A stretch of DNA of 64,000 bases from contig CM097887.1 of NCBI GenBank assembly GCA_044892525.1, positions 122,552,397 to 122,616,396 on the forward strand. Direction: 5' to 3'. Each line of letters begins with the position of its first letter. Position 1 is the stretch's first letter. A model generated the notes under the pieces. It was not told the DNA's origin. It was given only the letters and a program-made list of their open reading frames with translations, and searched no databases. The stretch comes from Schmidtea polychroa. Taxonomy: Eukaryota. The translations under genes were made by a program, and so were the position numbers. Shown here piece after piece: positions 1-19,642 of this stretch.

Positions 1-1
1 C

Positions 2-3000
2 TATAAGAGAGAAAAGAAAGTAAATTGGAAGTTGATAGTAGGTTTTCTACCATTTTTGGCAAAAACAATGGTGTTGCACGGTCATTCTAAAGACATACAT
101 AGAATAAAACGATTGATCAAAATACTGACAAAAATAAAAGGAACTGACGAGGAAGTCGGTAGACGATTTCGGAAAACAATGTATGATGAGGCAACGAGAG
201 CGCAACTGAAAAAGAACAAACCAAAATTCCTAGACAGATTTAGAAATCGATCAAACAGCAGCGATAGTGATGATGACGACAACGGGAATGACAAATACCC
301 ATATCCAAGTAGAAACCCGAATGAAAAGCCAATAGAAACAGCGCCATACTGGGAGAAAGAAAAAACAAATACCTGGATAGCCAACGGAAGTTATATACCA
401 CCGGATATCGTTGGACAACAAGCAGCGCTAACCATGACACAAAATATGTATCCACAGTTACCAAGTCAACCAGGTATGAACTATATGCCGACCCGAAGAA
501 CGAAAAGTGTAGACCAAGCGGACGACGTAAGAACGATAGCAGTGATGAGTTCACCAGGAGGTGCGGCAGTAACAGTCATGATCCAAATCAACGGGAAAGA
601 GACAAGCGCCATGATAGATACCGGAGCAAACGTATCAGCAATAGCAATAAACCAAATACCCAGTAAATGTTGGAAAGATATCGAACAAACAACTATCCAT
701 ATCATCGCATGCAGTAAAGAAACCGTAGACGTAGTAGGAAGATGGTGGACTACGTTACGATATCAGGATAACGAAATTGAAACGTATCTAGCGGTGATAC
801 CCAAACTGAGTGAACCATGTATAATCGGAACGGATTTAATGCCGGAATTGTTTAAGGAAGTAGTAATCGATTTAACAACAATGTGTCTAAAAGACAAAAT
901 GGGTAGAATATGCAAGATGAACGCAATAATTAGATGCCCGGAGAAAATAATTGTACCCGCAAAATCACAGATGATATGTCAAATAAAAGTGGATGCAGGA
1001 ATGGAAGGAGAAGTCATTTTTGAGCCAAGCAAATCATTCGAAAAACGACGAGAATTACCATTGGCAAGAGAAATAATAACAATAAATGAAGACGGGGAAA
1101 TACCAATTAACATCACAAATTTCGAGGAAGAAGACAAGATCATATATGAAAATGAAAGATTGGGTAGATTGACACCCATGATAGACATCGAATTACCAAA
1201 AATCACCAACGAAACAACGAAAGCGGACGAATTATGGATAATTGATAGCACCTTGCTAACGGAAAAAGAAAAGGAGAGACTTCAACAATTATTGATAGAA
1301 TATAAAGATATATTCGCAATTTCGGATTTAGATTTGGGAGCATGCGATGTTACACTACACGCAATACCATTAATAGACGAAACTCCAATCGCACTACGTC
1401 CATACAAACTAGCAGAGAAGCAAAAAGAGATAGCCGAGGCAGAAGTACAAAAAATGCTAGATGCACAAGTGATCGAACCAAGTTGTTCGCCATGGCAATT
1501 TCCAGTAGTCATGGTGAAGAAAAAAGATGGTACTCAGAGATTCTGTATCGATTATCGGAAACTAAATGCAGTAACAAAAAGAGACACATACCCATTACCA
1601 GACATCAATGAGATGTTACTTATGTTACAGGGGGCCGCATATTTTACATCTTTAGATCTGAAAAGTGGATATTGGCAGATCAAAGTCAAGGAGGAAGACA
1701 AAGAGAAAACAGCATTCACATTGGGCCGAGATCTATACCAATTCAGGAAAATGCCGTTCGGACTGACCAATGCCCCAGCATCATTCCAGAGATGTATGAA
1801 TTTTGTCACACACGGGATCAAGCAATGTATGGTATATATTGATGATTTATTAATATATTCAGCAACTTTCGAACAACATTTGGAGGACATTAGAAACGTG
1901 TTCATCCGATTACGACAATGGAAACTGAAACTTAAACCATCCAAATGTGATTGGGCAAAAGAAAAAGTTACGTTCTTAGGACACATAGTGTCAGCAAAAG
2001 GCAAAGAACCAGATCCAAGAAACATAGAAAAAATAAAAACATGTCCAGCACCAAAAACTGTCACCCAAGTTCAAGAATTTCTCGGATTATGCGGATATTA
2101 TCGAAAATTCATCAAAAACTATGCAGGCATTGCGAAACCAATACAAGAATTAGTGAAAAAGGATATTTCATTTATTTGGGGTGCAGAACAACAAAAAGCG
2201 TTTGAGACATTGCGAGATAAATTAATTGAAGCCCCAATACTAGTACATCCTGATTTCAAGAAACCGTTCTTATTAGCAACAGATGCAAGTGGATATGCAG
2301 CCGGAGCAATATTGGGACAACTCGACGAGGAAGGGAAAGAAAGAGTGATTGGATACTACAGTAGAACGTTTAAAAAGCACGAGAAAAACTATTCCGTAAC
2401 CGAGAGAGAAGCGTTAGCAATCATACAAGCAATTAAACATTTTCGATATTTGTTATGGGGACACGAAATATGTATCACCACGGATCATCAACCATTAGTA
2501 TGGCTTGGTCAACACAAAGAAGCTTCAAGTAGATTGATGCGATGGGCAATGCAGTTACGAGAATATTCACCGTTCATAAAATTCAAAGCGGGAAGAGCGA
2601 ATGCCAATGCGGATTGTATGTCCAGATTTATCTTTCCAGATTTGGTAGATCACGAAATGCAACGAATATGTCTGATGGTAGCAGAAGATTTAGATTTTTG
2701 CCAATTACGGAAAGACCAACAAGAGGATACAGAGTTGAAGCAAATCATTGAATATGTGAAAACAGGGAAAGCAGAGGTATATGAGAAAGATCAAAAATTG
2801 AAGGAGCATATGGATAAACATCGACATCGATATATTATCGAGAAGGACTGGTTATTGATAATGGATGGCGAGAAAAGACTGATGTGCATTCCCGAGAATA
2901 GACGTAAAGATCTACTAACACAATACCATGACGGAAGACTCGGAGGACATATGTCATCTAAAAAGACGTTGGCACGAATGAAACAAAAATATTTTTGGCC

Positions 3001-5698
3001 TACATTGACCGAGGATGTAACGGAATGGGTGAAAAATTGCATAACTTGCGCAACCAGAAAAAACACGGGAACAAAATGGAAGGCACCATTAAAACCAATG
3101 CCAGTACCAGCAGAACCAATGACTATGATATCTATGGATGTAGTCGGTCCATTACCAGAATCAGATAGAGGGAATATATATATATTGGTGATTACGGATT
3201 ATTTGACGAAATTCCCCGAAGCATTCGCAATGGCAGATCAGAAAGCAAGAACAATCGCAAAAATACTAGTAGAGGAGATATGCTGTCGATATGGAACACC
3301 GAAACGGATATTAACCGATCAAGGGACAAATTTCATGAGCGAAATAATGAGCGAAGTCACCAACTACTTCAAGATCGCAAAATTAAGAACATCACCGTAC
3401 CATCCACAAACTAATGGTATGACAGAAAGATTCAATGGAACACTGATTCAAATGTTATCAAATTATGTCGATCGTCATCAACGAGACTGGGATGAATATA
3501 TAAAATTATGTCTAATGGCTTACAGAATGTCGATTCACGCGTCCACAAAGATGAGTCCGTTCAAGTTGATGTACGGCAGAGAATGCAATATGCCAATGGA
3601 TTTAGAATATCAGCCACCAATATCACAATACATGGAAATAGACGATTATGTAACCAAGTTCAAGGAAAGAATGCAGGAAATCTGGGAAACTGCAGGATTG
3701 AATATAAAATTTTATCAAGAAAGTTACAAAGATCTACATGATAGAAAGAAAAACGTCAAACAGCATACGTTTCAAACAGGCGATTGGGTGATGATCGAAA
3801 CACCAGAATTAATTCCAGGAACCACCAAAAAATTACAACGAAACGGTAAAGGGCCGTATGAGATTCTATTCGTCGGAGAAACTAATGTAAGAGTACGATT
3901 AATGAACAACCCTTTTACAAGACCAATATACGTAAATGTTGCACGATGTAAGCCAATTCCGAAAACCGCCACCAGTCAGCCAGAAGGACGTACATTAACG
4001 ACAAGATCACAAACGTATAGAATAAACATGTTACAGCAGATAAACGAACCAACAGGTAATCGATTAGGGTTACAACCATCAGAAGCCGAGAAAATCATAA
4101 AGGAAGTAAAAGTTAAAATGCCCGGATGGGCAGAAGACAGATTAGATTTTGAGATATTGGGAGGTCTGCTAACAATGATCGAAAATTATGCAAACCGAGA
4201 AAGAACACACCCATTACTCAGGGTAGTAAAAAGTCAATGGCCTATATTATTTACGATCACAGACCACTATGGAGATACACCGCTGCACAAACTTTTAAAG
4301 GTCGGGAATAATGAACAAATACTGGAAACGATCGAAGCATTTCGCGATTGTAACATTTCGACGGATCAAGAAAACAACCAAGGTTACACCCCACTAATGA
4401 TAGCAGCCAATCGGGATAAAGCTAAAGATATTATCATCGCATTACTTGAAACTGGGTCAAAGATAACCACACAAGACCACAACCAGAAAAATGCACTACA
4501 TCATGCAATCGAAGGGAAAAGTACGGAAGCCTTCATAATCTTAGTAGATCTATTATCATATGAGGATAATAGGGAGATAGGAAACATGTATGACGGGTTA
4601 TTAACTGCAATCAAAGAGAAATTAATAACAATTACTGGAATACTAATTGCGTGGAGGAACCCGATCAAAAACGATTATATGGTAGATATAAACGAAACAT
4701 TTACCAAAGGAGAAAACACCTTGATGAGAGAAGCGATGAGAGGACATCACCTATTCGAAATTCCAAAACAACTACTACAACGTGGCATAAAGTTCTCAAA
4801 TCACAAAGACGAACAACTAATCAGAAAACGAATTACCAACTTAGAAAAAGCTATATCTCAATTTACCGATAAAGTACAAGTAAAATTTTGGGAAACCGTG
4901 AGTGTTTTACATATGATGGAAACTATGAACAACATTCGAGAAAACTACCTAAGTATTATTCAAGTTCTAACGGCAGAGGAACGCATTAACAGTTCGAACA
5001 AGAAAAAGATAAAAATAAAGAAAGTAAAAGCAAGAGAGTCTGAGGAACAAGTCGATCAAACAATAACCGATATAGCAACAACAAGTAAACCAAAGACAAT
5101 AAACTCCGACCAAGAGATAGTAGTACGTAAGGCTAAAGAGGTATTCTTTGAAGAAATGCAAGATCTATCCGATGAAGCGATACTATCAAAAATAACAAAA
5201 ACAGTACACACCTACGCAAGAGACCAGACCACAAATCTAGACATAGAAAAAATAAAAACATTTATACCACTAGCATTCACCTTACCAACAAAAGATTCAA
5301 GAACACCATTACAACAAGCCATTTTAGCAGCAAAAGAAAACAGAGCAATAACCATCATAAGAATCCTCAGGGACTTCGGAGAAGAATCTAATGCAAAAAA
5401 TGAACAAGGAGAAACGGCAATGATGTATGCAGCAATAACAAAGATACACCCGAAAACCTTACATATACTACATCAATCAGGTTCGAGACTGGATGAAATA
5501 TCAAACGAAGGAAATTCTACCATGGATTGGGCAACAATACAACCAAACTTGGAAATGATTAGATTCATTTGTAAAAATGCTACAAGAGCTGAGGTAGAAA
5601 ATATCTGTAAAAACACGTCACAGTTCCAATGGAACGATACGGATGAACTTAGAAGCTATGAAGTTATTGCTAACATGGAGAATACCACAAAGCAATAA
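2..5698 (+). CDS. pol: Retrotransposon polyprotein: aspartic protease, reverse transcriptase, RNase H, integrase, plus C-terminal ankyrin repeats (5'-truncated by the window edge)
   Basis: Frame is open from position 2 (the track's start at 32 is TTG). Protease SAMIDTGANVS (DTG at 617-625); RT RFCIDYRKLN, MPFGL and YIDD (1835-1846); RNase H LATDASG, EREALAI, TDHQPL; integrase HDGRLGGH...CITC, MDVVGPLP, TDQGTNF, ERFNGTL, GPY; ankyrin-like GDTPLH, GYTPLMIAA, QKNALHHA, RTPLQQA, GETAMMYAA. Confidence 0.97.
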   Translation, partial: YKREKKVNWKLIVGFLPFLAKTMVLHGHSKDIHRIKRLIKILTKIKGTDEEVGRRFRKTMYDEATRAQLKKNKPKFLDRFRNRSNSSDSDDDDNGNDKYPYPSRNPNEKPIETAPYWEKEKTNTWIANGSYIPPDIVGQQAALTMTQNMYPQLPSQPGMNYMPTRRTKSVDQADDVRTIAVMSSPGGAAVTVMIQINGKETSAMIDTGANVSAIAINQIPSKCWKDIEQTTIHIIACSKETVDVVGRWWTTLRYQDNEIETYLAVIPKLSEPCIIGTDLMPELFKEVVIDLTTMCLKDKMGRICKMNAIIRCPEKIIVPAKSQMICQIKVDAGMEGEVIFEPSKSFEKRRELPLAREIITINEDGEIPINITNFEEEDKIIYENERLGRLTPMIDIELPKITNETTKADELWIIDSTLLTEKEKERLQQLLIEYKDIFAISDLDLGACDVTLHAIPLIDETPIALRPYKLAEKQKEIAEAEVQKMLDAQVIEPSCSPWQFPVVMVKKKDGTQRFCIDYRKLNAVTKRDTYPLPDINEMLLMLQGAAYFTSLDLKSGYWQIKVKEEDKEKTAFTLGRDLYQFRKMPFGLTNAPASFQRCMNFVTHGIKQCMVYIDDLLIYSATFEQHLEDIRNVFIRLRQWKLKLKPSKCDWAKEKVTFLGHIVSAKGKEPDPRNIEKIKTCPAPKTVTQVQEFLGLCGYYRKFIKNYAGIAKPIQELVKKDISFIWGAEQQKAFETLRDKLIEAPILVHPDFKKPFLLATDASGYAAGAILGQLDEEGKERVIGYYSRTFKKHEKNYSVTEREALAIIQAIKHFRYLLWGHEICITTDHQPLVWLGQHKEASSRLMRWAMQLREYSPFIKFKAGRANANADCMSRFIFPDLVDHEMQRICLMVAEDLDFCQLRKDQQEDTELKQIIEYVKTGKAEVYEKDQKLKEHMDKHRHRYIIEKDWLLIMDGEKRLMCIPENRRKDLLTQYHDGRLGGHMSSKKTLARMKQKYFWPTLTEDVTEWVKNCITCATRKNTGTKWKAPLKPMPVPAEPMTMISMDVVGPLPESDRGNIYILVITDYLTKFPEAFAMADQKARTIAKILVEEICCRYGTPKRILTDQGTNFMSEIMSEVTNYFKIAKLRTSPYHPQTNGMTERFNGTLIQMLSNYVDRHQRDWDEYIKLCLMAYRMSIHASTKMSPFKLMYGRECNMPMDLEYQPPISQYMEIDDYVTKFKERMQEIWETAGLNIKFYQESYKDLHDRKKNVKQHTFQTGDWVMIETPELIPGTTKKLQRNGKGPYEILFVGETNVRVRLMNNPFTRPIYVNVARCKPIPKTATSQPEGRTLTTRSQTYRINMLQQINEPTGNRLGLQPSEAEKIIKEVKVKMPGWAEDRLDFEILGGLLTMIENYANRERTHPLLRVVKSQWPILFTITDHYGDTPLHKLLKVGNNEQILETIEAFRDCNISTDQENNQGYTPLMIAANRDKAKDIIIALLETGSKITTQDHNQKNALHHAIEGKSTEAFIILVDLLSYEDNREIGNMYDGLLTAIKEKLITITGILIAWRNPIKNDYMVDINETFTKGENTLMREAMRGHHLFEIPKQLLQRGIKFSNHKDEQLIRKRITNLEKAISQFTDKVQVKFWETVSVLHMMETMNNIRENYLSIIQVLTAEERINSSNKKKIKIKKVKARESEEQVDQTITDIATTSKPKTINSDQEIVVRKAKEVFFEEMQDLSDEAILSKITKTVHTYARDQTTNLDIEKIKTFIPLAFTLPTKDSRTPLQQAILAAKENRAITIIRILRDFGEESNAKNEQGETAMMYAAITKIHPKTLHILHQSGSRLDEISNEGNSTMDWATIQPNLEMIRFICKNATRAEVENICKNTSQFQWNDTDELRSYEVIANMENTTKQ

Positions 5699-7253
5699 AT
5701 ATGCAATAAATATAAATGAGTTCTACGAAAACGGAGAAAATGCTATGGTTAAAAATACACTAACAAAAGGAGGAACTCCGAAAATCATAATGATCGTATT
5801 AAACAGGGAAGATCTCAAATTCACGCAGAATCTAAACGAACAAAAGCGAATCGGGAAACATCGTCGGATACAATTAAGAGAATTAGTGAAAGAATGGAAT
5901 AGAAAGAGACATGTAGCAACAGGCAGAAAGGAGTTCGAATTCGAAGCAAAATTAGCAAGAAACAGAGTGCTAACGGCATACCGCAGATTGTTGAATGATA
6001 TAAATGTCGAGGACGACATTTTAAACGATAGCGGGGGAGATAAAGACGATAAAGACGACGATAATAATGAAAAAGGTCGAAACGGGAATAAAGAGAAAGA
6101 GAAATCAGAGGAGAATAATCAAGAAAATAACGACGCGAGTAGGAAAAAAGAGGAAAATAACCCGAGAAACCGAATAAAGCAAGAAGAAAAGACGAATAGT
6201 GGAAAACAGAGGGTATGCCTACTTTTTACCAACAAAGAAATGGAGACAAATATGATGATAATGATACTCGTATTAACAATGGTGGAAATGATAACAGCCC
6301 AGGGAGGAATGAGAACGATAAAAGAAGCCAAAGAAACGGAAAATAAGGACAACAAAGAAGAAGAACTAAAACAAGAAAAGAAAAAACAAGTACAAGAGCA
6401 GCAATGGGATCTAAAAGAAGAATGGGATTTAAAAGAAAGGTGTATATTAGGAAGATGTATGTCTAGAGCTTATCAGAGACTAGTGTTAAAAAATGAAGAT
6501 GCAGAACCAATAACGGAAGTAAGAATACAAGAAGCATACCGAAATCGAGACGGAAAGAGAATAACGAAAGTCAAAGGGAAGGAGGTACACCTGGGAAAAG
6601 GAGGTGAGGTAGTGATAACGCAACTCCAGCCAAGAAAAGAACACAAAGTCTGCATTGCAAGATTAAGACCGGGTGAAGACTGTCTACAATATGTAATACA
6701 GCAACAACCTCCAAAAGAATACACAATATGCATCTGGAGAAAAGATACAGCGAGAGAATGTCGACGATACCCTGGGAAAAGAGGGAGGAAAAGAAAAATC
6801 AATGATGAAAAAGATGAGCAAGGAAAACGCAAGAAAAACAGTGAGAAACATCAAGACAATTATGTATCCGAGGAGGAGATGGAGAAAATACAAAAAATGG
6901 CAAAGGAAGGTATGAACGAGGAAATAGCAAGAATACGAGGAATGATGAAAGGAAATGGCAAAGAAGGTAATCTAAAAAGCACAGAAGCAATATCAACAAT
7001 AACGAACAAGGAAAAAGCGGAAATTATAAGCGTAAAACAGATGATGTGGATCAGCGGCATAATAATAACAGGGGCCTTTTTAATCATAACGGGGGGGACA
7101 ATAAAAATAATCAAAGATAGACGGCATCGCGGAGAACTAGAAATGGCCAGAATAAGAAATTTTCAACATCGTGTAAAACGACCAAGTAATATCAAGCAGG
7201 AACAGTGGGTGGAGGCCTGGAATGCTCAGCGCCCTCCAAGCTCACGTATATAG
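5643..7253 (+). CDS. ORF2: N-terminus continues the ankyrin array of pol; the C-terminal part (from ATG 6240) resembles a type I membrane protein
   Basis: LLLTWRIPQSNKYAININEFYENGENAM matches ILIAWRNPIKNDYMVDINETFTKGENTL in pol. Hydrophobic MMIMILVLTMVEMITA, a six-Cys region, TM-like WISGIIITGAFLIITGGTI and a basic tail. Confidence 0.75.
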   Translation: MNLEAMKLLLTWRIPQSNKYAININEFYENGENAMVKNTLTKGGTPKIIMIVLNREDLKFTQNLNEQKRIGKHRRIQLRELVKEWNRKRHVATGRKEFEFEAKLARNRVLTAYRRLLNDINVEDDILNDSGGDKDDKDDDNNEKGRNGNKEKEKSEENNQENNDASRKKEENNPRNRIKQEEKTNSGKQRVCLLFTNKEMETNMMIMILVLTMVEMITAQGGMRTIKEAKETENKDNKEEELKQEKKKQVQEQQWDLKEEWDLKERCILGRCMSRAYQRLVLKNEDAEPITEVRIQEAYRNRDGKRITKVKGKEVHLGKGGEVVITQLQPRKEHKVCIARLRPGEDCLQYVIQQQPPKEYTICIWRKDTARECRRYPGKRGRKRKINDEKDEQGKRKKNSEKHQDNYVSEEEMEKIQKMAKEGMNEEIARIRGMMKGNGKEGNLKSTEAISTITNKEKAEIISVKQMMWISGIIITGAFLIITGGTIKIIKDRRHRGELEMARIRNFQHRVKRPSNIKQEQWVEAWNAQRPPSSRI

Positions 7254-7421
7254 AAAGGATTATGACTGTATATAGATTGTAAAAAGTAAGTAGGTAATAT
7301 TTATTTATATAACAGTATTCTATATTTTTATATAAGCGCGGTATCAATAGTATATAATGATGGGGATAATTAATATGAAAATAAAATTAGATAAGGATTG
7401 AAAAGTATATATAAATTAAGA

Positions 7422-7781
7422 ATGGAGCGAATAGGCGAGGAAGTAAATCACAGTACAACAACCGAGGAGATGTGGAAACAACAATGTGCAATGTTAACTC
7501 AAGTGATTTCGAATTTACAGGAACAAGGACTCGCTGTACAAAGAAGCTTAGTCGAAAGTTTAAATAAAGGCTTCAGTTATGTAAGAATAATCGAAGATCA
7601 ACGAATAAAAATAGAACAAATGCAGCGAGAGATAGACCGAATATCACGATACAGCCAGGTGCAAGAAGAGGAGTTAATAAGAATCGCGGAAGAGATGGAG
7701 CGAGAGGAGATAGAAGACTGGTCAGAATGGTTAACCAGCAGGGAAGAGGGCGGACAAGAGGCCGACTCTTCCAGCCAATAA
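7422..7781 (+). CDS. Small acidic coiled-coil accessory protein (119 aa from ATG 7422)
   Basis: Open frame with the element's A-rich codon bias, Q/E-rich helical sequence, flanked by AT-rich spacers. The track start at 7398 is TTG; the first ATG is at 7422. Confidence 0.7.
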   Translation: MERIGEEVNHSTTTEEMWKQQCAMLTQVISNLQEQGLAVQRSLVESLNKGFSYVRIIEDQRIKIEQMQREIDRISRYSQVQEEELIRIAEEMEREEIEDWSEWLTSREEGGQEADSSSQ

Positions 7782-7870
7782 ATATAACCTAAAATAGCAA
7801 TGTAAATAACTGTAAATAAAAATACGAAACTGTACCAGTAACGAATATATGTATATATATAATTATAGAA

Positions 7871-9258
7871 ATGGATAAGCGACAACGAGAAGAATTCAAA
7901 GAAATTGTTGAACAAATCAGAAAGTCCACCACAATTCGAATACACAACCATGTAACGTGTGGAATATGCAAGAGCTTATTAAGAGAACCTCACCAAACCA
8001 GATGTGGATGCAGAATGTGCAGAGAATGTGTAGAGGAGATAATAAAGAAGGGACCACAATGGTGCCCAGTATGCAAAGAAACAATGATAACAAGTTTGGG
8101 AGATACAAACGAAGATAAAGCAGCTGTAAAAGATATGTCGAATGCAAACCTAGGATGTAAAAACACCCATGTAATTGGCGAGGAGTGATATGGGAAGTGA
8201 GGCAACATATGGAGCAATGTGAATATAAAATCAGTCAATGCAAACGTTGCCAAGAAGAGATTAAAGTCAATGAAGAAGCAGAACATCAAAGTCGATGCGA
8301 AGAAAGACTGGAGAAATGTGAGTATTGCGGAGAAACCGACACCTGGAAAAAACTAATCAGTCAACATCACAACATACAAGAGGAGAAAGTGTGCGCAGAA
8401 TTCAGAGGAGAATGTCCCAATAAATGCGATAAACCCGGAGTAATAAAACTCGCTCAACATCTGAAAGAATGTGAAAGGAAAAAGATAAGGTGTGTGTTAG
8501 GAAAATGGGGATGTCAGAAACAATTACACCGAGGGGAATTACCCCAACATCTAGCAGAAAACGTATCAACACACGCGGAAATATGGTCAACGGTATTACA
8601 AGAAAACGAAAGGAAAACCGAAAACTTAGAAAGAGAAATAGTCTCGCTAAAAGCGTTGGTAAAGGAACTATTGGAAGAAAAGGAAGCATTTGAAGAGGCG
8701 AGAACAAGTACAAAGATACAGACAAATCTAGTAGAAACTAGCAACATTATGGTGAAAGAACTACATCAAAAAGTAAGCGAATTAAACCTCAACGAATTAA
8801 TACCTACGGCTCCATACATATGGAAAATAACGGGAGTAAAAGAGAAGATGCAGAGAGCGAGAAATGGAAAGGATACAACCTTACTAAGTCCAGCATTCTA
8901 CTCATGGAAAAACGGGTATAAAATGAAAATGAAAGCATACCCCAATGGGGATGGAAGTGCATACGGAACGCATTTCTCAGTATTCTTCTTGATGTGCAAA
9001 GGGCCATACGACGAGTTAATAGAATGGCCATTCAAAGCAAAAATAGACCTCGCAATGATGAACTATCAAAGTATACATGAACAGAGTTTCCATACAGCGG
9101 GAAACCTCGTATGTTACCAAAGGCCCTTGGAAGAAGAAGGACCAGCAACTGGAGCACCAAATTTCATCCTACAGCGGAAAGTAGAAGACATGACGAGAAA
9201 CGACACTATATACATAAAAATAGCGGTGAGGCGAGACGGGAAGAGTAGGACTGAGTAG
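7871..9258 (+). CDS. TRAF-family protein (RING, TRAF zinc fingers, coiled coil, MATH/TRAF-C), intronless, split by a 1-nt frameshift near 8160-8170
   Basis: RING CGIC...QTRCGCRMCREC...CPVC in 7871-8188. In the other frame PCNWRGVIWEVRQH, then C/H zinc fingers, a coiled coil and MATH motifs YIWKI, SPAFYS..GYKM, YPNGDG..GTHFSVFF..KGPYD..EWPF, YQRP. Confidence 0.92.
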
Positions 9259-9473
9259 AGAGACGAATAATTTTGTATATACTAATTGTAAATATCGGCG
9301 TATATATCCAGTAAAATATTATATAATAGTGTAGAAAACCCCAAATCTACCAAAGGTAAACTTAAGCGAAAAACTCCTAAAACAACTCCTATAACGAATT
9401 ATAAAAATAAATAAATAATAAACCAGATATAAGCGTACAACGTTAAGTTAATGATATCGTTATTTAGACAAAG

Positions 9474-10511
9474 ATGACACAAGAAGGAACTGAAGCCCCA
9501 AACCACGAAACCAAAGTCAATAAAATCCATAAGGGAAAATGGGTCAAAGTAATGTTACAATTGACGAACCAGACCCACAACCACCTCGAAGAGGCCAGGG
9601 AATACGAGAATAACAAATATCAGTGGTTAGTAAACAATTTAAGAGCCGAAGCAGAAGCATGCAAAAGAGCCTCTAAGTGGGCATCATTGGAAAACACTCG
9701 CCAAGAAGCGCACAGCCACTATTTAAAACAGTTAGTGCAGGAAGCACGGAAACGATTGACGGACGAAAACACAAAACGAGAAGCAGAAAAACAAAAGGAA
9801 GGAAGGAAAATGAATCACCTATTGGCAGAAGCCCGAAACTGGAAGCGGCAGAACAAAGAGATGAAAAAAGAAATGAAAGAATTGCCTATGAGATTAGAAT
9901 ACGAAAGCGAACAAGGCAAATGGGAGGAAAATCTGGTCATAAGAGAAGAACTGAAACGGCTCAGAAAGATTGCGGCCCGAAGCCAAACATGGCAGACCAA
10001 AGCCATGGAATTTGAAAGACATCTAGCCATGAAAATCTCCATAAGGGAGCACGAGAATGCCGCAATGGAAGAACTGATACTTCAACAGTCAGGACGACTC
10101 GTGGAACTGGTAAATAAGGTCGCAGAACTAGAACGAGATGTCAACGGATACCAAGGAGCTCTGGAGCAGAGAAATATGGTACTGGCGGGGAAAAACAAAA
10201 AGTTAGAAAACGAAAGGAAAATGTATAACGAAAATCTCAAAAATCTGGAGATAGAGATCAAGAAATGGGAAAACGGCGAAAAAGCGGAAGAGTTAGAAAA
10301 ACAGATAGAGGTACGGGATGACGAAACTAGGTATTTAACCTACCTATTGGACGAGGAACTCAATGTGTCAAGAGCGCTAAGAGACGAAGTCCAAGAACTT
10401 AGAGCGCAGATTCCCCGGTACTACATCCCATTTGATCCCATCGCACTCCAATTACAAACGTCAGTAGAAAGCGATGAAGGATATGTAGGCCAGGAAGAGA
10501 CCTTTGTATAA
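9474..10511 (+). CDS. Long coiled-coil accessory protein (345 aa)
   Basis: ATG-to-stop ORF, E/K/R/Q/L-rich helical sequence, element codon bias; no catalytic motif recognised. Confidence 0.8.
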   Translation: MTQEGTEAPNHETKVNKIHKGKWVKVMLQLTNQTHNHLEEAREYENNKYQWLVNNLRAEAEACKRASKWASLENTRQEAHSHYLKQLVQEARKRLTDENTKREAEKQKEGRKMNHLLAEARNWKRQNKEMKKEMKELPMRLEYESEQGKWEENLVIREELKRLRKIAARSQTWQTKAMEFERHLAMKISIREHENAAMEELILQQSGRLVELVNKVAELERDVNGYQGALEQRNMVLAGKNKKLENERKMYNENLKNLEIEIKKWENGEKAEELEKQIEVRDDETRYLTYLLDEELNVSRALRDEVQELRAQIPRYYIPFDPIALQLQTSVESDEGYVGQEETFV

Positions 10512-10684
10512 AGATAAAGGGGAAGATAAAAAATATAAAAATCGGGACCTGTATCCCAACCAAAAAATTAATGGTACGGTAAAAGTATGAAAGGGACTGT
10601 AACCCTGATTATAAAATAACATATAAATGTATAAGTATAAGCCGCACTGTAGCGCAATTATTAATTACGTATATATTATAGAAA

Positions 10685-11386
10685 ATGAACGCTGAGAACG
10701 GACAATCTATCATAACACCTATAATTGAATTAGAAGAGGGGGAAATTGAAGTTGATGAAGTGGAAAGGAAGAAAACTATCAAGGAAGAATTACAAGAAGA
10801 GAGACAGGAAAACGAAAGATTAGTAGAAAGGTGGAGAGATAATCGAAAAATGATTAAAGTATTGAAAAGAGAATATATCTTGTTAGAAGGAGTAAAGAAA
10901 GAAGTAGAGGAAGAAAACGAATGGCTTCACGAGCAAAGAAAGCGAGGGAGAAATTGGGAAAAGATCGCGGAAGAATTATGGCAGGAGAGGGCCAGTCGAA
11001 AGGCCGACGAAGTGATTAGTGACTATTGGAAAACCGAGGCACGGAAACACCAAGAAAGCCTGAAAGAGTTACAACTCCAACTACACCAAAAACAGAAGGA
11101 ATGTGAGATAATGAGACGAATGAACAACAAATACCAGGAAATAGACAACGAAGAAGACGGGGAAAGGGAAAATGATTTTCTACAGATAATGAACCATAAA
11201 AACCTCGAAAGAGCAACACAAGAAATAAAAGCACTAAAAGAAAAAATAATAACCCTAAAGCAACAGTTAGACGAAAGAGACAAACAATTAAAAGTACTAC
11301 CCGAATTGAGAAAACGAGTAATAAAAGCAGAAACGAGAGTGATGAGAACATCCGAGAAAACCCGTAAAAAGAAAACCCGGCAATAA
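10685..11386 (+). CDS. Coiled-coil accessory protein (233 aa) with a basic C-terminus
   Basis: ATG-to-stop ORF, E/K/R-rich, ends RKKKTRQ. Confidence 0.78.
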   Translation: MNAENGQSIITPIIELEEGEIEVDEVERKKTIKEELQEERQENERLVERWRDNRKMIKVLKREYILLEGVKKEVEEENEWLHEQRKRGRNWEKIAEELWQERASRKADEVISDYWKTEARKHQESLKELQLQLHQKQKECEIMRRMNNKYQEIDNEEDGERENDFLQIMNHKNLERATQEIKALKEKIITLKQQLDERDKQLKVLPELRKRVIKAETRVMRTSEKTRKKKTRQ

Positions 11387-11441
11387 TTAAAGATGAATGA
11401 TCAATGTAAATAATTGTAAATAAAAATTTTCGTATAGTAGT

Positions 11442-12077
11442 ATGTGGTTCGGAACAACCCTGATGACAATAATGATGATAGCGATAAACGGAATACCCAT
11501 GGGGCAGCCAATCCCAACACTCTGGGAGAATCCCGAGAAACAGCAAAACCCGTTAACCAAACTGAAAAGCGAAAGAAAGCTCTCCAACAACATCCCGAAG
11601 CAATGCTGGAACAAAGCCGTCTGGCAAAAACTTCAAATGCAACTCCACCTACAAACCCAAAAAATCGAACAGCTCGAAATTCTCTTACAAGAACAAACCA
11701 CCCAACAATCCTTGAAGGAAATCATCGTGAAGAAGGAAGTAAAAGAAAGCCAAGTCTTACTCTATGCTACCATCAGTGAAACCCTTATCATCTGCGCATT
11801 AGTCATCTGGAAAGCATATGATATTCATCGAACATGGAGAAGAAACCAGTCACTATCCGAGAAACACGAAAGAAAGAACCCACGACCGAAAAATAAACAT
11901 AAACGAGCAGTACATTTTCAACAACCAAACCCACCCGACCAAATGCAACTAAATCTATCTCCTGATCAAATGCCTGTTACAATCCAGCTCCCCACGATAA
12001 CAACTTCAACCAGCCATCCGACCCAGAATTCAACCAACCAAGACAGTAATAACATTCCGAACCTTGAGATCATGTGA
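11442..12077 (+). CDS. Putative type I membrane accessory protein (211 aa)
   Basis: Signal-peptide-like MWFGTTLMTIMMIAING, Q/L coiled coil, TM-like VLLYATISETLIICALVIW, a basic stretch and a P/Q/T/N-rich tail. Confidence 0.72.
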   Translation: MWFGTTLMTIMMIAINGIPMGQPIPTLWENPEKQQNPLTKLKSERKLSNNIPKQCWNKAVWQKLQMQLHLQTQKIEQLEILLQEQTTQQSLKEIIVKKEVKESQVLLYATISETLIICALVIWKAYDIHRTWRRNQSLSEKHERKNPRPKNKHKRAVHFQQPNPPDQMQLNLSPDQMPVTIQLPTITTSTSHPTQNSTNQDSNNIPNLEIM

Positions 12078-12839
12078 CATCGACCATTCATAAACTTTGT
12101 GTGTATAAATCCGGTCACCTAAAGTGGCCACTGCTTGCTTATATTTGTCCTTTTATCTGTTTAATTAAAGTATTATTTAGTTATTTTAATTTTATGTTTG
12201 TGTGAATGATGATCGTGAAATTAGTTGTTATGCCGAAAAAAGGTATGATTTAAACGTATGATATTATGTGAATTGCGGGGCGCAATTTTAACGGGCCCCG
12301 GAGTGATTTGTTGGGCTAAAACGTGGAGTTTCGAAAACTGGAGCAAATAGAAAAGTAATCCTTGAAAAATTAACGAAATAAAATAAAAATATAAAGTACC
12401 ATCAAATTCTCACTAATAAAGCAAAAAGGAACAATAAAATATCAATAAGAGAATAAGAATAAGTAAAACAAACTAAATAAAACCCAATAAACCCCTTGAG
12501 ATTTAGAAATAAAGCGATTTAGGACCCAGCAGATGAAATAGAATAAAATAAGTAAAAAAGTGACAACAAATAAACGAGAAATTTAAGAAATAAATAAAAA
12601 AAAATAAAACTATCTTTAAGTCTAATTAAAACAAAAAATTATATTACAATAAAAATAGGAGGAAAATAATAAAAATAAGAAAATAAATAAAATAATAATA
12701 AGAAATAAGTTAAGTCATTAAAATCTAATATATTATAATAAAAAACATAAAAATAATAATAAATAGTAAAAATACAAACAAGTCGTGTCCTGATTGGACG
12801 AAAAATAATATATAAGGAACGGAAAATATCTGTAGATTA

Positions 12840-12919
12840 CCATTTTTAAAAAATATTCTACAGGTGACCATTTTTAAAAAATATTCTACAGGTGACCACT
12901 TTTAAAAAATATTCTACAG
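12840..12919. repeat. 28-bp tandem repeat, about 3 copies (CCATTTTTAAAAAATATTCTACAGGTGA)
   Basis: Units start at 12840, 12868 and 12896 (third unit partial, one mismatch). Confidence 0.92.
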
Positions 12920-15219
12920 ACTTGACAGATTTCGGAACCTTTAATTAGCCTACAGCGAACTAGTTCAGAGATTTCCAAACCAAACCGAGGAAGGAATATA
13001 TAGAGGCCAAACTACAAATCCATTCGGGAAAAAATCTTAAATTCAACCGATTTTAACTTCAGTTTTCGAAACTCAAGGTATGCCTCGACAGTTGTTTTAT
13101 TTATGGTTATTAGGTTAATTTCGTTAATTATTATAAATATAATAAAACAATTTCATATAATAAATTTATTTAAATGAAAAGTTGCCTTTCTTCATGGTAC
13201 CGGCGACTGTACCATCTGAGAGCTCCCAGTATGATGTGGACGAGTTGGAATTGCACTGCAGTTGAGGACACCACCGTGGAAAGGTTGGTATGCATAAGAA
13301 ATCACGAACATGCTGAAAGGAGAATGTGATATTTGTAGAGAGTGATATTGTCATATTAGATATCCATCAAGGAGACGAGGAGGTTTCGGTTACGTAGGAG
13401 GAGCAACATCATACTCGGAGATCCAAATGATATGGTCGCCGGGTAAATTTTATTTATGCATTTTTCTATCATTCAGTTTGATTATTGTATTGTTGATTTG
13501 ATTGCATGGAAACGAGTTGATTGGTCCCTCATGACGGTGCAAGGAGGCGGCAGCAATGAATGCCTTCTTGGGTGTGTCGTGAGGGGTGAAGAAACTCAGT
13601 AGGTGGAACATCCAGTTGATAAGTGAAAATTTCCTTCATCAAGCGCGATCGTCCATAGAGCTTACCATCGATTCATTTAGCCCAATCGAGATTTCCAGTA
13701 GATGTAGAGATGATTTGAATTCCGAATGCAGGCAGTTCAGAGCGAGATAGGCAGTGACGATAATAATCCACATAGCTAGGAGAAAGATTTTTTTTTTGAT
13801 ATTCAGCCGGTCAATCGACGTAGCTAGGAAAGAGTAGTGTTGACCATGGATTGCAAGTAAATCCAACGATTTTTCAGTGACGCTCTGTGTTTGCAAGGTT
13901 CTGTCTGATTTGTGCCGTCATGATGTTAGTGGTTACATCCATTGCCGATGTACTCTTACGATTTGATTGTCGTCCGTGAGTCGCCAATGCTAGTGATAAA
14001 AATCTCTCGCTGACAGGGAAGTAAACATCTTGTAGGGAAATTATCAAAATTCTTACTTCGAGCTCGCAGACAGTAGTTGCCAACGATAACGAAATCAGTT
14101 GATTTACATTAGCCAGCGTAGAGTTAGTCGACAGGAGATATCTGATAATGTCCTGGAGAAAGAGATAACATGTTAGTTTTTCTGGGGAAACGTCAAATGG
14201 ATAAGCTGATAGTCATTGATCTGAATTTAGATCGTAAAAGGAAATTAGATGATAATGTTGAGCTTACCCAATAATCTATGAAGTTGTCGCCCACTCAGAT
14301 TGAATAATCTGCTTTTCCAATTCATCTACGGCTGCTTATTTGAGGGATCTATTACGCAACCACTATTATTCCGACTTGAGCATGCACATACACACGCACC
14401 ACAGTCAAATATACATAGGGCAGTGTAAAAGTAAATACACAATTTTTGGTGAGGTAATAGCGGTATGATGATGTGAATTTTTCTAGAACGGTGAGATAAT
14501 AGGATGAGGTAAAGGAATGGATTTCCCCTACACAACTCGATATATCATAATTTCTCACAACAGCATAAACCATCATTCGCAGTGATAGCCAACATACAGT
14601 TACAGATACCACCAGGAGTAATGACACACCTACACAGTCAATCATAATGCATAATCACAAGTGAACGTTTTCCATGACGACGATTTCGACGCGTTATTGG
14701 AATTAATTAGATGTAGATTTAGAGCAGAATTTTCAACTGATCACTTGATCAATTCCATAATTTTGAACGAGATAAAAACATAAATAATCTATTCCGTCGC
14801 CGTGAATTATTTCTCTGTACTTTTAGGTACGCCTACATCGACGGATTGCCATAATGATATCGGCAAATTTTTAAATAAAAATATACTAAGGGGAACAAGG
14901 TGGAAGGGTTTTTCAGTGAGAAAGACGAGTTTTACCTGGGGATGGTCCCATCCGAAAGTAAACCCAAAGGGCGAGGTTCATGTAGAGAGAATTTTCCGTA
15001 TGAAATCCCCGTTTCCTTTTCTTAATTTACACGAATTAGGTGAAGAGATTTGAATGTTTACAACTGAATGACTGCGTATAGAGATGGATGAAGAAGTGTG
15101 TGGGTCATCGTTGGGTGGTATGCTTGATAAACTCCAAAGCCACGCTCAAAAATTTGATTATTCTTTTCTCACTAATAGAGGTTTTTCCGAGTAAATATAA
15201 ACAATGATTGATTTTCTAG

Positions 15220-15981
15220 ATGGCTACATCGTCCAACCACGCCAAAGAACTTCGCCCGTGTTTTTCTTGTGCGGACAAGAACGCGGATATCGCCCAACTG
15301 CATTTATATATCGGGGCTCTCAAAAAGAGAATTGATCTCTATGAAGGAACGTGGTTCTCCCCGCCACAAATGAAAGAGGAACGCAAGAAAATTCTCCGAT
15401 TAGAGCATTGCAGGGACAGCCTGCTAGAGGAAAGCCGGTGTCAGCGGCTCACCATCAAAGCGCAATCGGAAGCCCTCCATAAGGTGTATACGGAGGCAGA
15501 ATTGGCTAAGCGGGTGCGAGAATTTCCCGTTCTAGAGGGGACGAATGTCTTTCCCCCTCACCACCCGTCTCCTACTTCTTCCAGCTCGCACTGCCAGGGG
15601 CACGGCTCACAACTGCCGCCCATTCCAGCCCCGGTGTTGTCAAGTCACCAGCCAAAGACAGGTGGACCTACCAATCCCATCGTAGCTCCAATCCTGGTAG
15701 CACAAATCGGTACCACGAACACCGAAAACCCCCCGACTACCCGCAAACGGAAACGGCCAACTCGAGCCGAGAAGAACCAAAAACGCCGAGATGCGATGAC
15801 AGCACTCGAGACGTCCTTATCGGCGGCGAATTCAAAAATCCAAGAGATAACGTCCTCCCATTCAATCCCCTCAAAGGAAGTCTTCCGCATTGTTCCAGCT
15901 GAGGGCATCAAATACATTGTAGATAGCCGATTACCGGTCGACATAGATGAGATACTGGCCGATGGAGATAACTTTGTTTAA
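15220..15981 (+). CDS. ORF inside the candidate LTR (253 aa): CxxC, coiled coil, P/S/H-rich linker, basic NLS-like segment
   Basis: ATG-to-stop ORF directly preceded by TTTTCTAG. Contains PCFSCAD and RKRKRPTRAEKNQKRR. Visibly more GC-rich than the upstream ORFs. Confidence 0.7.
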   Translation: MATSSNHAKELRPCFSCADKNADIAQLHLYIGALKKRIDLYEGTWFSPPQMKEERKKILRLEHCRDSLLEESRCQRLTIKAQSEALHKVYTEAELAKRVREFPVLEGTNVFPPHHPSPTSSSSHCQGHGSQLPPIPAPVLSSHQPKTGGPTNPIVAPILVAQIGTTNTENPPTTRKRKRPTRAEKNQKRRDAMTALETSLSAANSKIQEITSSHSIPSKEVFRIVPAEGIKYIVDSRLPVDIDEILADGDNFV

Positions 15982-16805
15982 CGTGACGTACAATTGAGTT
16001 TGATTTCCTCTTCATTGAGTTGTAAATTATCTTGTGAATGTTGCTAATGTTATGTCTTTTTGACTGCTGTTGATCTGTTAGTAGTAACGATATTTTTATA
16101 GTTTCAGCGTCAATAAAATTTTTTTGTTTGATTTCAGTTTTGTCGAGTTTTCATATATTTGTTTGTGCAATTAGGATAAATGAGATAATGCTGCGGAATG
16201 AAGGTAATTAAAGTTGAAGGTCGTTCCTTTGGACCAGGATCAGACTGAGTGACACGCATGTATGTGGGTAAGTCCTTCTAAGGCACCGTAGGACCCGAAC
16301 CGAGAAAGGGTTAGGAGTAGTCCTAAGGCAGGGGCTCACCTGCTAACTTTTTCCGACCCGTGTGAGCAGCACCAACATGGAACATCACCATGGGCTCATA
16401 CGTGGGAATATGCAATCGATCATTTGGAGTATGTGTAAGAAATGTATAACTGAGTAATGATGCTTGATAGGTGTGATGGAAAGGCATGCATAATTTTCTT
16501 TCTTCTCCACATACGCCAACACGTATGAAAACAGAAAACGTTAATTAATTAATTAATTGGCTAATGGAAAACCCGAGCCAATGGAGAACCCGAGAGATAA
16601 AGGAAACCCGAGCTGGGTAAACAAGAAGAAAGGCAAACAAAAGGAAAATTTGGGCCCATTAGCTTGACACAATGATTAATGGGAAAAGAGTAAGGAGAAG
16701 ATAGCGCGCGTAGGAAGACCGGTAGGGCCATTAATTATCTGGATTCGTTGGACCATTATGGATGACAGCCGAAGCAAACACGTAGGAGAAAATGTCAAAC
16801 GAAAG

Positions 16806-16909
16806 ATTGGCTCGGCAATAACCATTTGTCATCCTGATTTCGAGGAGTATATAAGCAAAGGGAAAATCAGAGAAAATCGGCATTTTGCCTCAGGTAGGTT
16901 AAGAAGAAT
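16806..16909 (+). promoter_or_regulatory. Putative LTR promoter (CCAAT box, TATA) and downstream splice donor
   Basis: ATTGG at 16806, TATATAA at 16848-16854, TCAG about 30 nt downstream, CAG|GTAGGT at 16901-16909. The TATA and donor are not conserved in the related LTR at 42.8 kb. Confidence 0.4.
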
Positions 16910-17421
16910 TAGACTGTAGGAAAAGTGGTAAACGAATTAGGGAAGTAGGGAAAAGAAGAAATAGAATTAAGAATACGGAAAGGCGAAAAGGGATCAAACC
17001 AAAGAGAAACCGAGGAAAAAGAGAGTCGAGATAACTAAAGGATCAAAAGGTGAATATTGTTTGTTTGCAAAGCATCAACGCCGAGCGGAGAATCGTATAA
17101 AACTTTGATTGGTAATTGTAGCGTGATAATAAATTGTGAACTTGTTGTTTCAATATACGTTGGGTCGTTCATTGTTTTACTTTAAAGAACACCAGGAGTC
17201 AGAGAGAACCGACTTGAAATAATCCAAAACCCAACAGACTAATGAAATCAACAAAGTATTTGATCTTTTGTCAAAACAAAAATAGAAGAAATGACAATTA
17301 ATCTCAACAATTCTTTTGAAATAAGTAATGAGTAAAATCTAGTTATTTTTTTTATTTTAGTATGAATCTGGACATTTAAAACAAATATCAAGTAATATCA
17401 ATATTTGATACAACCCATTAA

Positions 17422-18394: not shown

Positions 18395-19642
18395 TTATTT
18401 ATTCGGCACAAACATTTTAATCCCCTCTCTCTCGATTTCTGTATAATTCAATATATCCAACAATTCTTTATCAACTTCATCTGTTTTAGTTAGCGACGAA
18501 ACTCGATCACAGGCCAGTTTGTTCGCTGTGCAAATGTTCTTGATGGCCAGAATGGCATGCTGCTGGATATAGGGATTGCATAAATCGATTCTTGTGCTCG
18601 ACATTACAAGTTCCAATCCACCAGTGTCAACGACAATGTCTTGAATTGATTTATTATCATGGACTAAGTTAGAAATTAATTTGATAGTGAATTTTTTTAT
18701 GTTGAATATTGGTCGATCTATAAAAGTTTCATTTTTACTGAATGAATAATGGCTTTTAAAAATTTTATTTTCTTGAGGATCTTCATCGTATTGACGGAGA
18801 ATTCTTAGAACTTCTAACAATGACTTGATAAGAGCAGATTGTATTTCACATGAAATTATTTCTTTGATGTTATGAATATTGGATAATATCATAAGAGACA
18901 ATTTAATTATATCCAATTGCGATTGGTCAGATTTTTTAAATAAATCTTTATCGTCTTCTACTTTCAATAGCAAATAATCGACTAAAAATTTCGTATTTTC
19001 GATAGACATGTCAATATGTGCTTCATCAATAAAATATAACAACTGTACAATTACAACAGGATTACAAAATTTGAAACAATTTCTAACAAATCTAGAAGAT
19101 TTTTCCAACATTTTAGTTAGTAAAATATTACCATTTTCTATTTCAGATTCGTCAACTGCTTTGAAAATATTAGATATTAAAGAGAAATTTATACATGAAC
19201 AAACATAATCACATGAAAATATTTTGCTACTGTAAACATGCAATATCAGCCAAATAATAGTTCTGATTTCAGTGGAAGTTGAAATTTCAACGCAAACAAA
19301 AATTAAAGTGTTCAATATTTTTATAAGGCGATAATCGTATTGGTGCAAATTATCTTCAGAACATAGAAAGTTGTGTAACGTTTGGGATGCAACTAACTTT
19401 ATTGTTTCATCATCACATTCAAATTTAAATGATAAGCAGCAAAATATGAAGTCTAAAAGTTCTGTGAAACATTCGGAAGGAAATTTTTTCAATCCTAATG
19501 AATTTCTAAAAATTTGAATTGACTTAATTAGCAATTTTATATTATTGCAAGATTCTGATTTCAATAATGGTTGAACCTCTTTGAAGATTTTTAAAATATT
19601 CTGTTTATTGTAACTATCGATGTCTTTCAAATTAAAATTCAT
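18395..19642 (-). CDS. ATXN10: Ataxin-10 homologue (ARM-like repeat protein), single exon, 415 aa
   Basis: C-terminal KKFTIKLISNLVHDNKSIQDIV...GGLELVMSSTRIDLCNPYIQQHAILAIKNICTAN matches the ataxin-10 signature domain. Confidence 0.85.
   Translation of the reverse strand: MNFNLKDIDSYNKQNILKIFKEVQPLLKSESCNNIKLLIKSIQIFRNSLGLKKFPSECFTELLDFIFCCLSFKFECDDETIKLVASQTLHNFLCSEDNLHQYDYRLIKILNTLIFVCVEISTSTEIRTIIWLILHVYSSKIFSCDYVCSCINFSLISNIFKAVDESEIENGNILLTKMLEKSSRFVRNCFKFCNPVVIVQLLYFIDEAHIDMSIENTKFLVDYLLLKVEDDKDLFKKSDQSQLDIIKLSLMILSNIHNIKEIISCEIQSALIKSLLEVLRILRQYDEDPQENKIFKSHYSFSKNETFIDRPIFNIKKFTIKLISNLVHDNKSIQDIVVDTGGLELVMSSTRIDLCNPYIQQHAILAIKNICTANKLACDRVSSLTKTDEVDKELLDILNYTEIEREGIKMFVPNK

Follow-up and report, generated by a model that had tools for sequence, protein, structure and literature searches.

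A giant, recently inserted Burro-like gypsy element of Schmidtea polychroa with small accessory ORFs under purifying selection

We analyse here a stretch of 64,000 nucleotides from Schmidtea polychroa (GenBank assembly GCA_044892525.1, contig CM097887.1, positions 122,552,397 to 122,616,396 of the forward strand), hereafter the window, in which a giant gypsy retroelement lies. An earlier description made from the letters alone (the sequence-only reading) had placed at 1..17236 a gypsy element of the Burro kind, with a virus-like cassette of signalling-type genes. On the whole the giant element is confirmed, as its pair of long terminal repeats (LTRs), its length of 30,595 bp (internal region 22,171 bp) and its domain architecture match the description in PMC6431247, a source that, like the other papers cited here, is used for portions of its text. 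The upstream side was read from four 10-kb stretches (L001, L002 and L004 are labels of upstream stretches), and comparison with them finds the repeat that ends the element again 26 kb earlier, as its 5' LTR (Table 1). The element's start lies 14,073 bp upstream of the window and its last base is 16521, so that its 3' 16.5 kb falls inside the window; the bounds first proposed are thus to be replaced, and 16522-17236 is the LTR of a second gypsy element, called X below. Paired LTRs with TG..CA ends and a short target-site duplication are what is expected of Ty3/gypsy. Because the two LTRs differ at only 3 positions (two indels and one substitution) over about 4,213 bp, the window element is a very young, recently inserted copy. 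No clear polypurine tract is seen before the 3' LTR. A motif resembling a primer-binding site stands 7 nt past the 5' LTR (L001:138-170) and is presumably of the proline-tRNA type, and the 5' leader contains a 79-bp tandem array of about 6.5 copies (L001:1662-2170).

The largest gene is a giant polyprotein, ORF1, which begins at L001:3402 and, counted from the first ATG, runs for 4,098 codons until a stop at 5698; the frame is open across the window start, with zero stops in 3,332 codons. Pfam finds gag (E 6e-10) and CCHC knuckles (E 1.5e-8; three by eye, of which two pass Pfam) in the upstream portion, followed in the window by protease (PR), reverse transcriptase (RT), RNase H and integrase, which is the Ty3/gypsy order. 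Between gag and protease lies an in-frame env, a mononegavirus-type fusion protein (PF24664, E 3.8e-72). The intact PR-RT-RH-IN core that had been claimed is therefore present as an open frame (2-5698) with ankyrins, though as only the back half of a frame starting with gag and env; the env, which lay outside the earlier reader's view, strengthens the virus-like interpretation. The best ankyrin stretch is matched by Ank_2 at E 1e-17, and a second cluster is recognised by eye. A ubiquitin match (E 0.092) and a Bcl-2-like stretch are both below cut-off and sit where published elements have them, and no dUTPase is matched by Pfam between PR and RT. The published BCL2-like, ubiquitin/SUMO-like and dUTPase-like calls in Burro were made with HHpred (PMC6431247). 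That the ankyrins act as IkB mimics on NF-kB finds no support, since they sit inside the polyprotein; a Rel-domain search of the host genome came back blank, as did its control search, and carries no weight either way.

Table 1. Features of the element and its surroundings (window positions unless a stretch label is given)
Feature	Position	Strand	Remarks
5' LTR	L002:5927-10000 plus L001:1-137		partner of 3' LTR
3' part of giant ORF1 polyprotein	1..5698	+	env cytoplasmic tail, PR 575-850, RT 1514-1990, RNase H 2252-2566, integrase 2888-3406, ankyrins with best stretch 4325-4549 and second cluster ~5225-5617 (Pfam; second cluster by eye)
ORF1 C-terminal part	5643..7253	+	frame shifted by break near 5640, in window copy alone; begins ankyrin-like, then hydrophobic signal-like stretch ~6252-6308, Cys-containing beta-rich domain ~6429-6782, transmembrane segment ~7032-7115, then short tail (hydropathy)
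ORF3, 119 aa	7422..7781	+	helical/coiled-coil-like by composition; no known family
TRAF gene	7871..9258	+	RING, zinc fingers, coiled coil, MATH; frames 7871-8188 and 8209-9258, break near 8160
ORF5, 345 aa	9474..10511	+	long charged coiled-coil-like protein; no known family
ORF6, 233 aa	10685..11386	+	coiled-coil-like; no known family
ORF7, 211 aa	11442..12077	+	predicted type I membrane protein (hydropathy)
Five AT-rich spacers, 700 nt total	7254-7421, 7782-7870, 9259-9473, 10512-10684, 11387-11441	+
3' LTR, 4,213 bp	12309..16521	+	ends TGTTGG and CCAACA
LTR ORF, 253 aa	15220..15981	+	no known family; TAG directly before ATG
Target-site duplication CGTA, 4 bp	16522..16525	+	second copy L002:5923-5926
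Remainder of element X 3' LTR	16522..17236	+	outside window element; 99.6% identity to L004:7599-8317

Seven small ORFs accompany the polyprotein, namely five stand-alone ORFs downstream of it, one in the LTR and one RING ORF upstream. The window ORFs are all on the same strand and single-exon, as the sequence-only reading had stated, and its count of at least six becomes five downstream plus the LTR ORF and the upstream RING ORF. The presence of two membrane proteins is borne out by hydrophobic segments in two ORFs, and that of an ORF-bearing LTR by the position of the LTR ORF within the 3' repeat. The ankyrin extension and the first membrane protein, listed then as accessory genes, both belong to the pol frame, for in all 18 sister loci that hold both parts the 5643 ORF continues the frame of the ankyrins (19 sister loci in total were picked from 116 TRAF matches in the host genome to span 71-99% identity). 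The family polyprotein is accordingly predicted at about 4,600 aa in sister copies, ending in a signal-like stretch, a Cys-containing domain and a transmembrane (TM) segment; the topology of this second membrane domain and the processing of the polyprotein are inferred from sequence features. Residues 196-536 of the 5643-7253 product have dN/dS of 0.10-0.15. As for the Cys-containing domain, a fibronectin-III fold suggested by eye was dropped, Pfam and PDB being blank and the Atlas giving no usable match; a single-sequence model (pLDDT 43) has no fold match at E 0.001, and among 1.84 billion representatives a single marginal match appears (E 5e-4), to a protein with SpaA-type Pfam domains.

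Above cut-off, Pfam matches are restricted to 2-5698, 7871-8188 and 8209-9258, with the other six ORFs unmatched. Since ORF3, ORF5, ORF6, ORF7, the LTR ORF and the Cys domain have neither family nor fold, most of the cassette cannot be called signalling-type. The TRAF itself combines RING, zf-TRAF and MATH (E 1e-25) by Pfam. These, together with the coiled coil, form one chain of 462 aa in 19 of 19 sister loci; the window copy alone has two frames, and its break is private in comparison with three close relatives, as is the break near 5640 in comparison with 3 of 3 close copies. The TRAF named earlier is hence real, and its split concerns the window copy only. Programmed frameshifts at 5640 and 8160 are ruled out by the continuous sister copies, and the two breaks may be mutations or assembly errors. 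One sister copy (L043:271-5547) has no ORF3, and there the polyprotein frame continues straight into the TRAF, open over 1,759 aa. The closest solved relatives are human TRAF3 (E 2e-28) and TRAF2 (E 1e-27), and a protein homologue search returned only TRAFs, 17 of them, at 24-29% identity.

The element is not alone in the genome. With a 2.1-kb query we obtained 389 candidate copies, of which 40 were scored, all 40 matching at 98% identity or more. The 116 scored TRAF matches range from 71 to 100% identity, and in 94 of them the frame stays open over at least 461 aa with no stop, the other 22 being short or carrying stops (the scoring favours intact copies). ORF3, TRAF, ORF5, ORF6 and ORF7 follow each other in order in 17 of the 19 chosen sister loci; the exceptions are L039, where the last three ORFs are missing within the stretch, and L043 with its missing ORF3. 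Selection was then measured as pairwise Nei-Gojobori dN/dS. In comparisons with L038 and L045 (dS mostly 0.15-0.7, about 1.5 for ORF5) the ratio is 0.13-0.14 for ORF3, 0.05-0.12 for the RING, 0.13-0.18 for the rest of TRAF, 0.06 for ORF5, 0.12-0.18 for ORF6 and 0.28-0.41 for ORF7, all with intervals that exclude 1. The full ranges are 0.06-0.14 for ORF3, 0.05-0.18 for TRAF, 0.03-0.09 for ORF5, 0.12-0.20 for ORF6, 0.07-0.35 for the LTR ORF and 0.23-0.45 for ORF7 within allele types, one near-identical ORF7 pair (L044) having an interval that includes 1. The upstream RING ORF has 0.30-0.35 at saturated dS, and against a divergent subfamily, where dS is again saturated, ORF3, TRAF, ORF5 and ORF6 have 0.04-0.17 and RT 0.00-0.01. 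The LTR ORF is split in the 5' LTR of the window copy, and it is retained as a 249-aa ORF (36-43% identity) in subfamily LTRs that have no blastn similarity. These ratios below 1 show that all accessory ORFs are under purifying selection, and so that the cargo matters to the element.

Two explanations are judged by this evidence. Neutral capture of host genes, or a chimera in which the assembly joined such genes to a transposon, would agree with the relatedness of the element TRAF to host TRAFs, and is hardly credible given dN/dS far below 1, a gene order fixed across families, dispersed copies, paired LTRs and the target duplication. The sequence-only reading had itself named absence of the ORFs from other copies, neutral evolution and chimerism as grounds for giving it up; the order is kept in the sister loci and in the sister family described below, selection is purifying, and matched LTRs, target duplication and many dispersed copies exclude a chimera. 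That the cargo is kept for the benefit of the host, as partly domesticated survival genes spread by the element, is very unlikely: a tandem pair of solo TRAFs at L102 does fall in the element MATH clade, but single insertions decay, with 22 of 116 scored TRAF matches short or interrupted and the window copy broken twice. Such decay fits selection during replication and not after insertion, and the small ORFs are maintained by selection on replicating lineages.

ORF7 deserves separate mention. By hydropathy it is predicted to have an N-terminal hydrophobic stretch, a short helical ectodomain, one TM and a polar tail. A four-helix cytokine was considered and set aside, as the model (pLDDT 47, from 9 sequences) places two helices ahead of the TM and is too poor to rely on; an Atlas search gave only matches of 0.85 or less. 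Alignment separates ORF7 into two allele types with about 25% identity between them. The type not present in the window element is carried by at least 10 copies that share 98-99% TRAF identity with it (position-matched by eye; examples in the host genome are C1:72665735, C2:17631886, C3:124863846 and C1:63455334). These swapped alleles point to an exchange of modules by recombination. At C1:186484199-186500096 the alternative ORF7 stands eleven times in tandem, at intervals of about 1.5 kb.

We now compare the element with known systems. Burro/GYPSM1 is described as longer than 30 kb, with a 4,873-aa ORF1 containing gag, MATH, ubiquitin-like and BCL2-like domains, an in-frame env, pol and ankyrins, and also with BIR and accessory ORFs (PMC6431247); Burro1/GYPSM1 and Burro-2 to -4 are Schmidtea mediterranea elements (Jurka 2007; Grohme et al. 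2018, via PMC6431247). The suspicion that the family might not be new was thus correct, as env, MATH, ankyrin and BIR are all published for it. Our element has the length above 30 kb, the internal region of up to 25 kb, the polyprotein of 4,000-5,000 aa, the gag with CCHC, the mononegavirus-like env in frame, and the ankyrins and TRAF/MATH in its cargo that mark Burro-like elements, and it resembles Burro1-4 as described also in long LTRs, three CCHC knuckles, env between gag and pol, PR-RT-RH-IN, accessory ORFs and many copies. Unlike Burro1/GYPSM1, it has no MATH in ORF1, the only MATH being in the complete RING-bearing TRAF downstream of pol, and Pfam matches no BIR in any of its ORFs scanned. 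As internal MATH and BIR are missing, it is a member of the Burro-like group and not Burro1 itself, set apart by the published description. The Burro-like element of Dugesia tigrina (PMC6431247) likewise has an ORF1 without MATH, a MATH on a separate accessory ORF and env in frame, but its MATH ORF is upstream and its gag has two knuckles, whereas in our element the TRAF lies downstream and an IAP-type RING occupies the upstream ORF.

Closer to the Burro1 description is a sister family, family B (stretches L097-L100 and L092-L096), whose RT is 90-92% identical to that of the window element (RT tree of 9 rows, all from the host genome). Its ORF1 of 4,791 aa has an internal MATH, and downstream follow an ORF3-like ORF, a full TRAF (474 aa), a BIR-RING IAP (392 aa; BIR E 9e-16), ORF5-like and ORF6-like ORFs and a type I membrane ORF. 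The gene order is therefore common to the two families, family B adding the IAP after TRAF and carrying two different MATH domains, and homologues sit in the same slots (ORF3 E 4e-12, ORF5 E 2e-14, ORF6 weakly at E 2e-4). With complex retroviruses and foamy-like fish ERVs (the latter mentioned in PMC6431247) the element shares env, several small ORFs located 3' of pol, a further ORF in the LTR, sub-genomic RNAs that are likely spliced, and a variable surface protein; it differs in its gypsy-type pol and in cargo from host TRAF and IAP families, and its env precedes PR in one and the same frame, not forming a separate gene downstream of pol as in Retroviridae.

How the small ORFs may be expressed is suggested by the five spacers. 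The motif TGTA[ACT]ATA, which we take to be a Pumilio element, occurs in them 8 times in sense and 0 times in antisense (dinucleotide-shuffle mean 0.56, with 0 of 300 shuffles reaching 8), and is absent from the sense strand of about 15 kb of ORFs and LTR. Elsewhere it counts 10 at L034, 10 at L101, 8 at L040 and 7 in family B, with sense:antisense numbers over the five loci of 8:0, 10:0, 10:0, 8:0 and 7:1, against 0.11 per kb in flanking DNA and a single occurrence in 30 control stretches after non-element TRAFs taken together. An acceptor-like AG is found within 6 nt ahead of the following ATG in 5 of 5 window spacers (random mean 1.1), in 5 of 5 at L034 (random mean 1.4) and in 5 of 6 in family B (random mean 2.2), and TAG precedes 5 of 6 accessory ATGs compared with 4 of 69 internal ones, as well as the upstream RING ORF in both families. 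The arrangement resembles flatworm spliced-leader operons, whose spacing peaks near 100 bp (PMC8629364): the ORFs share a strand, are separated by 55-215 nt, and each has an acceptor-like AG ahead of its start. It differs in belonging to a retroelement that also needs its full-length RNA to persist, and trans-splicing is only putative here. The simplest reading is probably that a leader is joined by splicing to each ORF, giving sub-genomic RNAs, where cis and trans splicing look alike in the DNA.

Another explanation of the spacers is that internal promoters or re-initiation express the ORFs, the motif being a Forkhead-like DNA site or a leaky poly(A) part and the AGs no acceptors. The AAA variant of the motif presumably contains a Forkhead-like site; it overlaps AATAAA in several spacers, and the AAA-form doublet is frequent across the genome, with 2,224 matches where a reversed control has 418. 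Against this stand the strict sense-strand bias, the use of all three middle letters, and the enrichment of TAG just before ATG, LTR ORF and upstream RING ORF included, which together make internal expression doubtful while leaving it an appreciable chance. Because planarian 3' ends generally lack a UGUA signal (PMC5068929), the motif is not a routine poly(A) feature, and the same report weakens a CFIm reading of UGUA.

Our proposed explanation, to which we assign a probability of about 0.6, is a young Burro-like element whose selected small ORFs would come from spliced sub-genomic RNAs under PUF control and whose cargo would serve host-cell survival signalling. The element copies itself by reverse transcription and integrase-made insertion, as the paired LTRs, the 4-bp duplication and the dispersed copies show. 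One polyprotein carries gag, env, pol, ankyrins and the second membrane domain. The small ORFs would be translated from processed sub-genomic RNAs, the leader being spliced in cis or by spliced-leader trans-splicing to the AG before each ATG, and PUF-type elements in the spacers would control the stability or translation of these RNAs. The RING, TRAF, Bcl-2-like and ankyrin modules (in family B also IAP) most likely keep the producing cell alive by acting on stress and death signalling that depends on ubiquitin, and ORF7, being variable, may contact a host surface partner.

The main rival to a host-signalling role is a role in particle assembly and entry, in which the cassette is selected for the element's own cycle, with Gag ubiquitination, trafficking and membrane anchoring as well as budding and cell entry, and not for changing immune or death signalling of the host. 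Purifying selection is silent on what is selected, three ORFs are coiled-coil-like, two modules are membrane-bound and env is present, all of which suits such a role. The recognisable cargo is nevertheless skewed to death and ubiquitin control (TRAF, IAP-type RING, the BIR-RING IAP of family B, a weak Bcl-2), and planarian TRAFs are reported as cell-survival regulators (PMC7586133), so that we regard the particle role as possible and rather unlikely. Planarians are also reported to possess TRAF, TAK1, JNK and p38 (PMC7958881).

Several observations weigh against the survival-signalling explanation, besides the AATAAA overlap and the Forkhead-like site already named. The Bcl-2-like stretch reaches only E 0.036 (15 bits against a cut-off of 31.4), is unmatched in the family B counterpart and found nothing in a PDB sequence search; ORF3, ORF5, ORF6, ORF7 and the LTR ORF, and the Cys domain after Pfam, PDB, Atlas and model-based fold searches, gave no family or fold. 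The TRAF and membrane domain of the window copy itself are broken. Where human TRAF3 has the stretch NSSSF, the element TRAF reads NLVCY, and the mammalian receptor-binding logic that we take NSSSF to represent may not carry over. As for selection, dS is saturated for the most divergent pairs. The spacer motif was first spotted in the window copy, so the other loci are its test, and three of them are kin; one of the five window spacers lacks it. No AG lies within 6 nt of the ATG of the divergent-subfamily LTR ORF (2 of 2), nor at the chosen ATG in some spacers of L101 and L040. In addition, the MATH tree described below is midpoint-rooted with 2 outside rows kept, from which the direction of transfer is not readable.

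Part of this had been foreseen. Burro elements were proposed in 2019 as proviruses tampering with apoptosis and ubiquitination, with confirmation called for (PMC6431247), and both this idea and the element architecture are already known from that text. BURRO1 transcripts are reported to be tissue-biased and to rise on PIWI loss (PMC8532177), and Burro is mentioned once each in the portions used of PMC11410931 and PMC13309565. Our literature search found nothing on selection, splicing or Pumilio sites in Burro cargo, nor on a link between TRAF expansion and Burro; figures, supplements and Grohme 2018 were outside this search and may already show the downstream ORFs. What is added here is the evidence for selection, the swapping of ORF7 alleles, the pattern in the spacers and a possible contribution to the TRAF expansion.

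As to the neighbourhood, the window element is inserted into the 3' LTR of element X, another gypsy element with its own target duplication (GACT) and LTRs of 1,041 bp that are about 99.6% identical to each other. X spans L004:7277 to window 17236, about 19.4 kb minus the insert. It has gag with two CCHC matches, a ubiquitin-like stretch and a mononegavirus-type env in frame ahead of PR-RT-RH-IN, with a stop inside the env of this frame; its RT is 51% identical to that of the window element, and the domain scan of X gave no ankyrin match. X is a smaller, env-in-polyprotein relative of Burro. A degenerate X-family LTR (67-74% identity), probably an old solo LTR, lies at window 42158-43160. Other window features are an ataxin-10-like host ORF (18395-19642, minus strand), a pogo/Tigger-type DDE_1 transposase (48512-49843, minus strand) and a CBS-domain exon (50634-51203, plus strand).

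Finally we consider the origin of the element TRAF and its place among planarian TRAFs. When 45 MATH domains are placed on a tree, the three types carried by elements and the solo pair at L102 group together (96/89), nested in a clade (97/95) with other non-element host TRAFs, which fits capture of the element TRAF from the host's own TRAF family. The solo pair stands in tandem in AT-rich DNA (L102:2193-5635, minus strand) and could represent the lineage that donated the TRAF or, alternatively, genes returned to the host. Large non-element TRAF clusters with RING and MATH in separate pieces are found on contig C2, at about 1-5 Mb and 105-124 Mb. That these clusters might also be element-borne was rejected, as none of 12 ten-kb stretches has Burro-type pol or cassette genes beside the TRAF; the stretches hold one short piece of RT and a single decayed env on the opposite strand, with RING and MATH separate in most. 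The C2 clusters are a true host expansion alongside the element-borne one. Among the best 150 MATH matches in the host genome, about 50 are in frames of an identical 487 aa and 13 in frames above 2,400 aa (by eye), and the four of these frames that were checked are all element-borne. Reports give 99 planarian MATH transcripts (PMC6109357) and an expansion of 282 TRAF contigs (PMC7586133); no link of these transcripts to retroelements is found in the portions used of either, and PMC7586133 contains neither 'transpos' nor 'retro'.

The widest interpretation, which we hold unlikely as a whole, would make Burro-type elements infectious, env-bearing complex gypsy viruses, with an anti-death and stress cassette organised as an operon, resolved by spliced leader and gated by Pumilio, with a variable surface gene exchanged by recombination, and with TRAFs that form a large share of the planarian expansion and are handed back to the host. 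The spacer pattern marks the exact junctions and binding sites to seek in RNA data, and the hypothesis of 2019 thereby becomes directly testable. For planarian biology, part of the TRAF expansion, and of the multi-mapping signal in TRAF studies, may be retroelement cargo, our counts being those of the S. polychroa genome.

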